From assembly GCA_951406725.2 (NCBI GenBank), contig OX597834.1:30628001-30692000 (forward strand): a DNA stretch of 64,000 nucleotides. Direction: 5' to 3'. This DNA comes from Octopus vulgaris (taxonomy: Eukaryota). Positions within the stretch are counted from its first letter, which is position 1. Every line of letters begins with the position of its first letter. Of the stretch, positions 31,217 through 37,900 are shown in pieces. The translations under genes and the position numbers were made by a program. The notes below the pieces were generated by a model. It had not been told where the DNA came from, did no database searches, and saw only the letters and a list, made by a program, of their open reading frames with translations.

Positions 31217-31385
31217 GTTTATACAAAATATTCTCCTTATTCAACCCCAATCTCCATTCCCTCCATGACCTTCATGTCATACACCCAACTAATGGTAAGG
31301 ATTATTACCTGAGTGATGAAAGAGCATTAACGTTTGTTAGGTTTTTCGTTTTCTACACACTACAGAAAGAAAGACAGGCACAAAC

Positions 31386-32134
31386 CTCTTTGGAAGTGTC
31401 TACTTTGATGCCGATAGAATTCAGCCGAGTTATTTTGGTAAGGGTAGGAGTATTTTTGGCATCGCATGCAACTTCGGAATTAGTTCGTGATTTTGCTCTT
31501 ACCACCAATTCCCTATTCGGAGCCTGCGAGATCTCCGACGTGCTCCAGCTTCGGTTCTCCACGGGTGTCCACTTGTGATGCGTTGTCGTGTCGAAGCTGG
31601 CGACAGAACTGTCGCCGAAACCCTTGCTGTGCGCTATGTCGAAGTCAGCCGAATGGGAAACTAGTTGTCGAGCGGCGGTCGTTATTGTCGTCGTTGTTGT
31701 CGTGTGGGGAAGATTTCTTTTGCAGAGACCGTCAGTAGCAGGGGACGGACCAGACTGAGGAACGGCCGGCTGACTGGCAGGAAAGCTCGAGATGCGTTTG
31801 TGGCGAGTGTGGTTGGCACTTCTTAAGATTAACTCCTTCGCTTCAGAGTCAAGCTGAAAATCCTCGTGGGAAGTAGGGTCGACTGGACAGCTGAACTTAC
31901 GTTGTACTGCATAGTCATACGCGGATGAATAAGTGGTCTCCGAAGTGTGGTGGGACTTTGTCTGCCGGAGCGGCTTATGATATGCCTGATCCGCTACTGA
32001 CGGCTGTGCAGGGGTGGCATCCACAGAAACAGTGTAGGCATTAGTACTGTTGGCGCTCGTAGTGCTACAAGATCTGGCTGTTACTTGAGAAGAATCTGAG
32101 ACTTTGTTTGGACTCTCTGGGGTTATACTGCTGT

Positions 32135-32172
<38 letters not shown>

Positions 32173-32377
32173 TTGTCGCTGCTGCTGCTGCTGGGGACTT
32201 TCTTGCTTTCAACTGTTATGGTAGTCACCTGAGTCTTGTCGGCAGTGGGTGTGGTGGAGATGAAGCAAGAGTCCTCAGATGGTATTTCGGCCCTGAATAC
32301 TTTCGGCTTTGTGTAGAGGGTACTGGGTGGCAAATCTGACGTAGAATGACGGTAGTTTATTCTGTCAGCTTTCACTT
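31386..32377 (-). CDS. Large internal coding exon (about 330 aa, Ser/Thr-rich, probably disordered) of an unidentified multi-exon gene
   Basis: Only long non-microsatellite ORF in the window (31353-32441). Acceptor ttttttctctctgtattgcag|AA GTG AAA (phase 1) at 32377; donor AAA GAG|gtttgt (phase 0) at 31386; 992 nt = 2 + 330 codons. Protein EVKADRINYRHS...RKFSCP...RHKRISSFP...RAKSRTNSE...KVDTSKE has several RxxS kinase-type motifs. No domain recognised. Confidence 0.85.
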
Positions 32378-32525
32378 CTGCAATACAGAGAGAAAAAAGT
32401 GTTAGATGGAAACAGATACACACACACACACACACACACACATACTACAGACATATAATTATATAAATATAATTAAGGGCATCTTAATTTGCGGTCTCTG
32501 CGAAAGAAATCTTCCCCACACGACA

Positions 32526-32909
32526 GGCGTAGGAGTGGCTGTGTGGTAAGTAGCTTGCTTACGAACCACATGGTTCCGGGTTCAGTCCCACTGGTTGGCA
32601 CCTTGGGCAAGTGTCTTCTACTATACCCTCGGGCCGACCAAAGCCTTGTGAATGGATTTGGTAGACGGAAACTGAAAGAAGCCCAGCGTATGTATATGTA
32701 TGTGTGTGTGTGTATATGTTTGTATGTCTGTATTTGTCCCCCCCGCCAACATCGCTTGACAACCGATGCTGGTGTGTTTACGTCCCCGTAACTTAGCAGT
32801 TCAGCAAAAGAGAATGATAGAATAAGTACTAGGGTTGATTTGCTCGACTAAAGGCGGTGCTCCAGCATGGCTGCAGTCAAATAACTGAAACAAGTAAAAG
32901 AATAAAAGA

Positions 32910-32910
<1 letters not shown>
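32526..32910 (+). mobile_element. SINE family A carrying a 34-bp host-exon-derived 5' extension (32492-32525)
   Basis: Family consensus begins at ggcgtaggagtggctgtgtgg; the preceding 34 bp are an inverted copy of 31698-31731. Confidence 0.9.
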
Positions 32911-32969
<59 letters not shown>

Positions 32970-34230: not shown

Positions 34231-34537
34231 ACAATGACAAAGATGGTAGAATCAAAGAGTTGAAGAAAATAGCAATCTGTTGATCAATTATTGATGTCTA
34301 AATTAGGCAGGAGGACATGAATTTGTGAAGGAGAGATGAGGAGGGGGTATTAGGGTAGATTATCTACCAACAAGCACAATGACGTAAATTTGTTAAGGAG
34401 GGAAGGCATTAGGGTGGATTATTTTATCAAGAAGGCAGTGAACTGGAAGAATTGTTAACACACTGGACAAAAAAGCTTAATGGCATGGAGTCTGCCGACA
34501 CTGACTTTGCTTTCAATCCTTTCAGGGTCGATAAATT

Positions 34538-34976
34538 AAGTACCAGTTCCGCACTAGGGTCGATGTAATCGACTTAATCCCTTTGTCTGTCCTTGTTTGT
34601 CCCCTCTATGTTTAGCCCCCTGTGGGCAATAAAGAAATAGATATAAGTACCAATTGAGTACTTGGGGTCCATGTAATCGACTTAATCCCTTTGTCTGTCC
34701 TTGTTTGTCCCCTCTATGTTTCGCCCCCTGTGGGCAATAAAGAAATAGATATAAGTACCAATTGAGTACTTGGGGTCCATGTAATCGACTTAATCCCTTT
34801 GTCTGTCCTTGTTTGTCCCCTCTATGTTTAGCTCCCTGTGGGCAATAAAGAAATAGATATAAGTACCAATTGAGTACTTGGGGTCCATGTAATCGACTTA
34901 ATCCCTTTGTCTGTCCTTGTTTGTCCCCTCTATGTTTAGCCTCCTGTGGGCAATAAAGAAATAGATATAAGTACCA
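34538..34976 (+). repeat. Four tandem 108-bp copies of the SINE B 3' half
   Basis: aagtacca recurs at 34538, 34645, 34753, 34861 and 34969; the units are near-identical. Confidence 0.95.
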
Positions 34977-37900
34977 AATATTCAACTAGTTCTTCATTTA
35001 ATTGGCCTCCAGAAGTACAAATGGCATGGCCTAACTTGGCAAGATTGGAACAAGTCAGAAATATAAACATGTTGTGGTATTCTGGTAGAACTACATGAAA
35101 GTGTTATAGTATATTGGTAGAAGTCTGTGAATGCGTTGGGGCTCTACCAACAAACCTAAGCGTTACAAACTCCAATAAGCGATATTTGACAGGAGCAACT
35201 TGACCTGCTAGAAATAGCAGCTCAAATCTCCATAAATCAAACAACACAATCTTAAAATAAAAGATACACAAATGGCTTATGTAGTCATGGTTATCCTCAA
35301 AAACCAGGTGTTTATGTTTATGTTTATGTTTTCCAGTTTCAGCTCTTGAGCTGTGGCCATGCTGGGGCACCGCCATTGTGTGATGTCTTTTATCATAGAT
35401 TTTCTTCTCCCTCAGGAACGATTCCAGATTAAGCACCAACAACATCAAAATCCAAAAACGGAGTATGTACACAGCTACTTGATTTACTAAAAATAGCAGC
35501 TAAATATTTATCAAATCATGCACACTACATTCTTAAAAATAGGATAGATTGGGCAATGTAATCCAAAAGTAGAGAAAGGGTTAAGGTGGTCATGGTGGGA
35601 ATGTCTGTTCAATCAGGAGAGATAAGGTTTAACAGCAATGACATGCAATATTTGTGGCCATCAAGGAAGCCTTAGTGTAGATGTTAGAAACAACAGCTTG
35701 ATTTCCCTCAAATCATATATTGCTGTCTGTAAAAAAAAAAGAAAAAAAAACCGATTGACACATAGAACAAAATTGTCCAAGATAACCTTAGGAAAACAAA
35801 ACAAAAAGGCAAGATTGATTAGGCTGGCAGATTTTTGGTCATAGGATTCTTGAATTAGACATGACCTAGGACTAAATTGAAAATCAAGGATCAACTAGGT
35901 TGCACAACCTGAAAGACATAGCAGTGAAATCTCCCTCACATCACATTTTATTGTCTAAGACAAAATACTAGTAGGAATAGTTGTGAAATCTTCCTCACAT
36001 CACATCTGACTGTCCAAGACAAGGATAAAAAACTATGAGAAATAGTAGCAAAATTTCCCTCAAATCACATTGTAAACTCTTAAAAAATGGGACCTATTGA
36101 ATAAATGGGAGCTGAGCAAGATCTGTTTGGAAAATATATCGATTGGAATGGTCACAGCTAGAATGTCTTTGATGTTAAGCTTCCTGAATCAGAAGCGACC
36201 AAGGGCTAAACAGCCAATATCCATCACTATTCAAATTTAACCATCCACCCCCCTTATGCACACATATGCTGCTGTCTCCACCCCACCCATTCATATGCTA
36301 TTGCTACAGGCAGTACCCCTTCCACCCTCTCATCATGACTCCCCTTCAGACCAGAGTAGGAAAAGAGGGGGTGGGGGAGGACTGAGTGTCCACCCACCTC
36401 TCACCTACCCTCACCAGCCTGACATTTTAGTTCAGGTTTTCTAAATGCCAACTGTTATTCTGGTGGGGGTGGGAATGATGCTACGGGGTAGGGGTGATGC
36501 AAGGGGGTAGTGAGGAAGGGTAGGAATGATGCAGGTGGAGGTAGGGAAGGTGAGACAAAGGGGGGAGGGAATGAGGTGGAAGAAGTAGGACATGATGTGG
36601 GTGGATGAGTGCGGGAGGGAGGTGCATGAAACAAAGAAGGGAGAGAAGTGTACATGGGTGGGGTGGGAAGGGTGTTGGTGGCAAATGAAGTGAGGGATCA
36701 TTGATCGTGGGTGTGTCTGGGTGGATTGAGGTGTGCGTGTGTGTGCACATGTGTGGGGTGATGGGAGTGTGGTTCAGGAATGGTGGATGAGGGAAGGTGG
36801 TCAATGATGGATGGGGTGGAGGTGGTAGTCAGGGGTGGCGTGAGAAGGTAGACAAAGGTAGATGTAATAACAGCTGATTGGGTGGGTGGGGGTTGAGAAG
36901 AAGGATGAGAATGGGAAGTGATATAGATATGTCTAGTAATAGACAAAAGGATGAGTAGGGAGGGAGGGAGGAGTGAAGCACGGGTAGGTAGTGATGGTGA
37001 TGATAAATAATAAGGGTAGTGAGGAAGACAATAGTAATTATCATGAGGACAGTGATGGTGGCGACGGAGATATTGGTGGCGGTGGGGTGGTGGTGGTGGC
37101 AGTGATAAGAACCATTTATATAGATTGTGAAATTATGTCAAAGAGACTGGTGGAGGTCATGCTTGGATAGTTCAACATACCAACAAATATAATACATCTA
37201 TACAAACATGTTTACATATATACATATACATACACACACAAATCACACACATATATATATACACACACACACACACACAAATCACACATATATATACACA
37301 CAGACACATATATATACACACACACATATACACACATATATACACACACACACACACACATATATACACACACACACACACACATACACACACACACACG
37401 CACACATATATACACACACACACACACACATATATAATGTGATAAGTTATTTAACTCCAAGCCAGCCATAATCCAACAGATCTTATGATCAAAGACATTC
37501 CATGCATGAACATCCCATCTTTTTCCTATCAGCCACAGTATAACTGAGACTACATCATCTAATGTGCCCTCCTTCCCCTTATATTTAAAATGGCACAGTG
37601 TGCTTTGATAGAGACCTGGCTACTCTTTCTAGCAGACTCAGTGATCACATAACAGCTACCCTTGCCCGTACATTCATTCACGTATCATGTGGTAGACTTA
37701 GGCAACAAGCGGCTGCGTTCACATTTGTCTTGCCTGACTGAAGCTAGTCCCTCACCCACCACCATCTTCACCCGACCTCCACCCTTTCTATTCAAGCAGC
37801 CGACAATTGCAGCAGGAACGGATCCGGAAGGAAGGAAGGAAGGCAGCTATGTCAGCAACCAGTGCCAGACGTTCTGCCATTCCACTGCAACGGAATTAAA

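Follow-up and report, generated by a model that had tools for sequence, protein, structure and literature searches.

The window, a 64,000-nucleotide stretch of Octopus vulgaris DNA, contains a 992-nt coding exon of the octopus gene for CNK/CNKSR, a scaffold protein with the Pfam domains SAM, CRIC, PDZ and PH. The minus-strand reading frame matches the CNK/CNKSR proteins of O. sinensis and O. bimaculoides at 98% and 87%, respectively, and proteins named O. vulgaris align exon by exon over about 200 kb around the window. Contigs of the RNA runs X1, X6 and X7 stop exactly at the exon borders, 32377 and 31386, which identifies them as spliced RNA, and tblastn agrees with both borders. The intron upstream of the exon is about 51 kb long. 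Two alternative 5' splice donors, one near 31501 and the other at 31386, lie in the exon and are used in isoforms of O. vulgaris, O. sinensis and O. bimaculoides. The features considered below are these:

31386 to 32377, minus strand: coding exon of CNK/CNKSR, 992 nt, encoding a low-complexity linker between PDZ and PH (protein matches and spliced contigs).
31498 to 31675, minus strand: predicted exon-internal hairpin holding A31514 (in UAG, opposite C31655), independent of the SINE copy.
31698 to 31731, minus strand: exon arm that served as template, codons (D)GLCKRNLPHTT, with 11 adenosines.
32410 to 32445, minus strand: (UG)n tract in the intron, able to pair with the SINE (CA)n tract and so loop out the copy (competing fold).
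32453 to 32491, no strand: AT-rich stretch at the junction, containing a 12-nt palindrome and a 7-bp hairpin; possibly further junction filler.
32492 to 32525, plus strand (mRNA sense on plus, antisense in the pre-mRNA): inverted copy of the exon arm with one mismatch, at 32502; candidate editing-complementary sequence (ECS).
32526 to 32912, plus strand: full-length SINE, tRNA-type and of the family that dominates in octopus, lying antisense to the gene; the 3' end is approximate.
32698 to 32731, minus strand: (CA)n tract within the SINE, partner of the competing hairpin.

An inverted-repeat scan of the window pairs exon bases 31698-31731 with 32492-32525, two arms of 34 nt that lie 760 nt apart and are complementary at 33/34 positions (97%). 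The single mismatch falls on the pair 31721/32502, where in mRNA sense the exon has A and the copy has G, giving an A:C opposition in the minus-strand pre-mRNA; on the minus-strand reading, 31721 is the first base of an AAA lysine codon. The copy lies in the upstream intron, 115 nt from the intron's 3' end, and the last base of the copy, 32525, adjoins the first base of the SINE at 32526 with a gap of 0, such that the template lies 794-828 nt 5' of the SINE head, inverted and single-copy. The main points had been made in a preliminary description of the locus and are borne out here, the intronic position now being anchored by an exon end at 32377 that spliced contigs and tblastn both set. That description had also drawn attention to a difference of A versus G at the next flanking pair, 31732/32491. 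This difference carries no weight: exon arm and copy no longer match beyond the 34 nt, the next base is mismatched too (G versus T), and a second edit at 31732/32491 is ruled out since the pair lies beyond the matched segment.

When the whole 2.8-Gb genome was searched with A or G allowed at the mismatch, the 34-mer was found at two places only, both of them here, and a reversed control of the 34-mer gave 0 matches in the same genome. The pairing is therefore attributable neither to chance nor to a repeat consensus, and the concern that the 34-mer might belong to a multi-copy repeat is dispelled. Because the 34-mer is unique, a repeat consensus or a 5' transduction is ruled out as its source, and the terminal inverted repeats of a MITE or other DNA transposon are ruled out as well, one arm also being part of a reading frame that runs uninterrupted through the orthologues. 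The inverted exon copy at the SINE junction is a real structure.

The SINE family dominates this genome, with 364 heads in the 1.96 Mb examined and a density of about 1 head per 5.5 kb (319 in 1.86 Mb). The focal element has A- and B-box-like motifs by eye, ARAGORN reports no tRNA in the window, and the element appears to resemble the octopus tRNA-derived SINEs of Ohshima and Okada. Heads of the family are normally preceded by TATATA (A at -1 in 95/112, T at -2 in 79/112); the focal head is preceded instead by the exon copy. Both flanks of the insertion are TA/CA microsatellite, which keeps any target-site duplication from being recognized. The stretch 32453-32491, which separates the (AC)n tract from the copy, consists of nested short palindromes of low complexity that look like junction filler, and no local template longer than 10 nt was found for it. 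A tandem array with a 108-nt period and 98% identity between neighboring copies lies elsewhere in the window, at 34449-34977.

Did the copy and the SINE arrive together? The zero gap, the unique template and the non-standard context of the head make one integration event much likelier than coincidence, and the copy almost certainly arose together with the SINE insertion. To this extent the earlier proposal of a reverse transcriptase switching from the SINE 5' end onto the host transcript stands, with the copy directly abutting the SINE and replacing TATATA. An alternative hypothesis is that inverted copy and SINE came about separately, for example by a break-repair insertion and a SINE insertion of its own, or that misassembly produced the junction. 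Local inverted repeats of short length are indeed common, with 57 in a 1.19-Mb non-repeat sample, and the junction is known from the assembly, the read-contig matches there being swamped by SINE sequence. However, a gap of 0 to a head would have to coincide by accident where heads occur only about once per 5.5 kb, the end of the copy is not the TA-rich target that the SINE family prefers, many of the background inverted repeats resemble the ends of transposons (2/2 checked did so), and a mismatch within the copy would be unlike a read fold-back artefact. We consider independent origin or artefact improbable.

A survey of other heads was carried out on a sample of the genome, following the earlier suggestion that SINE 5' flanks be searched for inverted matches. 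In a first pass, inverted copies were found at 4/100 evaluable heads compared with 12/1517 control points, 264/364 heads having been excluded because their flanks were repetitive, simple or too short. In a second pass they were found at 4/87 full-length heads, 0/81 truncated heads and 7/1058 other repeat boundaries, the repeat mask having been built from a 1.96-Mb sample and thus missing lower-copy families. An enrichment of inverted copies at SINE heads was nonetheless rejected upon inspection, since the four are the focal case, two multi-copy repeat ends and one local hairpin. The focal case stands, and no second distant case with a single-copy template occurs among the 86 other full-length and 81 truncated heads, 167 in all; the structure is thus rare, at 1/168 heads surveyed with the focal case pre-selected, and counts of orientation do not decide between a DNA and an RNA template.

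The survey also brought up three elements in their own right. The first (L158:5300-5695; C20:12055300-12055695) is about 390 bp long, flanked by TA and bounded by 33-bp terminal inverted repeats, and 40/40 scored copies are at least 99% identical, as in a very young MITE family. The second (L091:1860-1998) is an older palindromic multi-copy repeat (70-88% identity) beside a SINE head. The third (L028, about 1665-1700) is a near-perfect hairpin of 32 nt that immediately precedes a full-length SINE head, possibly a snap-back junction product or a small palindromic repeat.

If the copy was written during SINE integration, which nucleic acid was the template? The preliminary description took the shared RNA sense of copy and SINE to mark a jump onto RNA. 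This part of the proposal is not supported: orientation does not pick out an RNA template, since a 5' DNA flank that folds back would yield the same arrangement, an inverted copy on the upstream side. In the model that we favor, SINE RNA would have undergone target-primed reverse transcription where the intron is AT-rich, 115 nt before the 3' splice site. The resected 5' flank would then have folded back by its 3' end onto the exon about 760 nt away, where a polymerase copied 34 nt, and the extended flank end would have been joined to the full-length SINE cDNA; neutral decay afterwards would account for the G at 32502. No microhomology is visible at the distal junction outside the copy, and it could hide in the first bases of the copy. 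There are precedents for such events. The text available of PMC10191854 reports, for human L1, 3+1 somatic insertions (0.3% and 0.1%) with an inversion by fold-back on the 5' side of the target, 52-220 bp in size; the accessible part of PMC11702581 describes three insertions with locally templated DNA; and many of the 5' extra nucleotides of zebrafish LINEs derive from the flanks, according to the portion of PMC4245944 consulted. Against the model stand the shortness of the copied piece, 34 nt, and the distance of its template, 760 nt, the human fold-backs measuring 52-220 bp.

A competing hypothesis has the reverse transcriptase leave the SINE 5' end for CNK pre-mRNA that was still being made and was not edited; 34 nt would have been copied from it, the product joined to the flank, and the G acquired later. 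The template does lie within an expressed exon, copy and SINE do read in the same RNA sense, and both a co-insertion of local pre-mRNA with L1 (once, in the text available of PMC10191854) and same-orientation chimeras of two RNAs (in the accessible part of PMC11702581) have been reported. Against this, fold-back predicts the upstream side as well as the orientation, the human counts, in the same text of PMC10191854, are 4 fold-backs versus 1 pre-mRNA case, and the copy bears no mark that only RNA could leave, such as a splice junction or an edit cluster. This explanation appears unlikely to us, at something over one chance in five. The preferred reading is that the 34-mer is a locally templated 5' extra sequence, likely written during SINE integration, and that its single G is most likely a later ordinary mutation, with DNA fold-back ranked ahead of an RNA template (roughly 0.6 to 0.27).

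The age and ancestral state of the mismatched site can be read from related proteins. The lysine at 31721, residue 678 of protein P0006 by arithmetic from the tblastn alignment, lies in the low-complexity linker, in a segment that is not conserved in decapod-type homologues. Lys is found in 14/14 named octopus proteins covering the site and in one further octopod sequence (P0032), and the genomes of O. sinensis, O. bimaculoides and a further octopod encode Lys there. An ancestral G in the exon, changed from Glu to Lys by CpG decay, is thereby ruled out, and the possibility raised earlier that G is the ancestral allele at 31721 falls away. At the D-S/G-LCK position, two outgroups have Ser and the window and O. 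sinensis have Gly; the copy bears the derived Gly codon of the vulgaris/sinensis lineage, which suggests a likely origin after this lineage had separated from O. bimaculoides. The Ser-to-Gly change falls at 31730, the second base of the duplicated arm, and would itself be A-to-G if the ancestral codon was AGT.

The preliminary description went on to interpret the G at 32502 as a written-back edit, in that the switch would have been onto an already edited transcript, the G would be a captured inosine and the copy would reinforce a K-to-E site. There are features of the mismatch that fit this proposal. It is A>G in mRNA sense, a change that makes up only 12% of decay changes for this base mix; A:C geometry is favored by ADAR, and edited adenosines in coleoids favor A:C mismatches in the portion of PMC8891338 available; and ADAR-edited retrocopies exist in human cells (PMC11702581, in its accessible part). 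On the other hand, the SINE itself has drifted by 2-5%, so that one mismatch in 34 is expected. The focal head differs from the family majority at 7/160 (or 8/165) positions, of which 3 are rare (at most 5/216 copies) and 0 are A>G, and decay at 2-4.8% divergence would leave at least one mismatch among 34 nt with a probability of 0.50-0.81. A clustered, one-directional excess of A-to-G is absent, with 1/11 adenosines changed in the copy, in a CAA context, and 0/7 of the SINE-head differences. Capture of an inosine would also require an RNA template, germ-line editing, and editing at a time when the partner strand did not yet exist. Of the robust recoding sites in squid, by contrast, 91% are of neural type in the part of PMC9068888 accessible. 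In addition, 31721 reads A in 3/3 RNA contig sets.

DNA contigs from a related octopus bear on the same point. Organism B, the source of run X20, has two exon changes in common with the O. sinensis protein, and its exon contig breaks off precisely at 31702. These contigs are built from a k=31 graph that collapses alleles (10.1101/2024.07.30.605881, from the text available), and the break thus indicates that the 30-mer 31702-31731 branches, as a 34-nt repeat free of mismatches would cause. A second reading is a heterozygous variant at the CpG at 31701, which could give the same break; X7 keeps such a bubble at 31514, and the X20 depth bins fit neither reading exactly. The break is for this reason a hint, rather than proof, that the mismatch is absent in organism B. 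Taken with decay as a sufficient source of the G and the lack of A>G among the SINE differences, this hint leaves the captured inosine very improbable.

Because the template lies within a coding exon, the insertion creates exon-intron complementarity whatever its template was, and folding predicts that copy and exon can form a duplex in the pre-mRNA. The 34-bp duplex with its A:C mismatch, as earlier envisaged, is energetically possible, with a calculated energy of -61.2 kcal/mol and 33/34 positions paired. In the predicted fold of 31650-32560 the duplex appears in both the MFE and the centroid structure (z -2.64). Over eight fold windows its pair probability is 0.997 in 4/8, including the longest upstream one, and 0.0 in 4/8. 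In the windows that lack it, the (CA)n of the SINE pairs with the intronic (UG)n around the copy, a fold that is 6-16 kcal/mol better, and the duplex is restored once the fold also takes in another (UG)n tract farther upstream.

Is this duplex edited? Contigs of 4/24 runs were compared, namely RNA runs X1, X6 and X7, which come from three studies, and the DNA run X20; such contigs show major alleles only. In each of the three RNA sets a single continuous contig spans the exon arm and matches the genome at all 11 adenosines, and a majority A-to-G at 31721 or any other adenosine of the arm is absent in 3/3. The K-to-E change proposed earlier is consequently not the majority state in any of them. 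Supplement files of PMC8382921, PMC9989829 and PMC9068888 gave 0 matches to CNK gene names, and a protein search for edited isoforms gave 2 matches, one an octopod with the genomic Lys and the other a distant homologue that does not align there.

The same exon holds a different candidate. At 31514 the contigs show T>C, or A>G in the transcript, changing AGG (Arg) to GGG (Gly); the change takes up the whole contig in X1 and 32.9 of 39.2 depth in X7, and is absent in X6. Arg is genomic at this position in three species, and the X20 DNA contigs have their cover outside 31250-31641, the interval that includes 31514. The site lies in the predicted exon-internal hairpin, which by itself is not exceptional (z -1.44). 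A31514 is likely a true high-level A-to-I recoding site, Arg to Gly, as judged from the RNA contigs. It is situated 13 nt from the alternative donor near 31501 and about 180 nt from the exon arm. Since X1 and X7 show A-to-G at 31514 and not in the arm, the SINE-linked duplex is not edited at majority level where the exon looks heavily edited, and the copy is not a major recoding element in the samples examined, as seen in major alleles.

A lesser role may be considered, in which the copy, whichever its origin, works as an editing-complementary sequence for a lineage-specific group of sites at 31714-31721, edited in a minor fraction of neural transcripts. Any editing of the duplex would be expected to affect several sites together and not just one (K>E, K>R, R>G, N>D and N>S at 31721-31714). 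The near-perfect pairing, its energy and its probability of 0.997 in half of the fold windows would suit such a role, and the exon is apparently an ADAR substrate at 31514. Conversely, the (CA)n:(UG)n hairpin is transcribed earlier and wins in the other half of the windows, the arm has no majority editing even in X1, where the 31514 contig is fully G, and the Lys sits in a linker that decapod-type homologues do not conserve. We regard a working role of this kind as doubtful, at under one chance in three. The more specific proposition, that the SINE insertion built a working editing-complementary sequence in one step, recoding CNK (K678E and neighbors) in the nervous system of vulgaris-group octopuses only, is somewhat less probable still, at perhaps one in four.

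A dateable, one-step gain of a near-perfect exon-intron duplex amounts to a natural experiment on the origin of cephalopod recoding sites, in which the same 11 adenosines can be examined in species or alleles that have the insertion and in those that lack it. Should editing be present, errors of SINE integration would be a source of recoding structures in a SINE-dominated genome, and if the copy is a working editing-complementary sequence, retrotransposition would be a direct maker of new recoding sites. If editing is absent, the locus would be a tidy germ-line example of a known junction by-product.

How does this structure compare with known systems? In a literature search that covered titles and abstract openings, with subscription papers mostly outside it, no description was found of an insertion that copies a host exon to make an editing partner strand. 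The Q/R site of GRIA2 is edited by means of an intronic editing-complementary sequence. The octopus copy is likewise an intronic partner of an exon with an A:C mismatch, but in the known cases the element-dependent editing has been measured, and the octopus copy is a candidate by sequence and predicted fold. Alu pairs induce nearby site-selective editing, as reported in the accessible text of PMC4053975, and the octopus locus likewise has a retroelement near a possible recoding site; the Alus pair with each other, whereas the octopus insertion copied the exon. In ADAR-edited processed pseudogenes, as far as the part of PMC11702581 available describes them, edited adenosines are written into DNA as clustered substitutions in inverted Alus, in contrast to 1/11 adenosines in the octopus copy. 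The copy thus has the anatomy of an editing-complementary sequence, lacks editing at majority level in the three RNA contig sets, and by the clustering of substitutions is not an edited retrocopy. Closer parallels come from integration junctions. The 5' extra nucleotides of zebrafish L2-clade LINEs, in the portion of PMC4245944 consulted, are likewise copied from flanking genomic DNA, those cases being LINE inserts in cell lines and zebrafish and the octopus case a SINE. The co-insertion of local pre-mRNA with L1 (PMC10191854, text available) would give the same RNA-sense fusion as the octopus copy. The L1 5' fold-back inversion (PMC10191854 and PMC11702581, in their accessible parts) shares with it a short inverted duplication of the 5' flank joined to a retrotransposon head, and is rare as well, at 0.3% compared with 1/168 heads here, that one having been pre-selected; unlike these inversions of 52-220 bp, the octopus case is a germ-line SINE of a mollusc with 34 nt copied from a coding exon 760 nt away. 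The octopus copy shows the testable features of flank-templated 5' extra sequence at non-LTR insertions.
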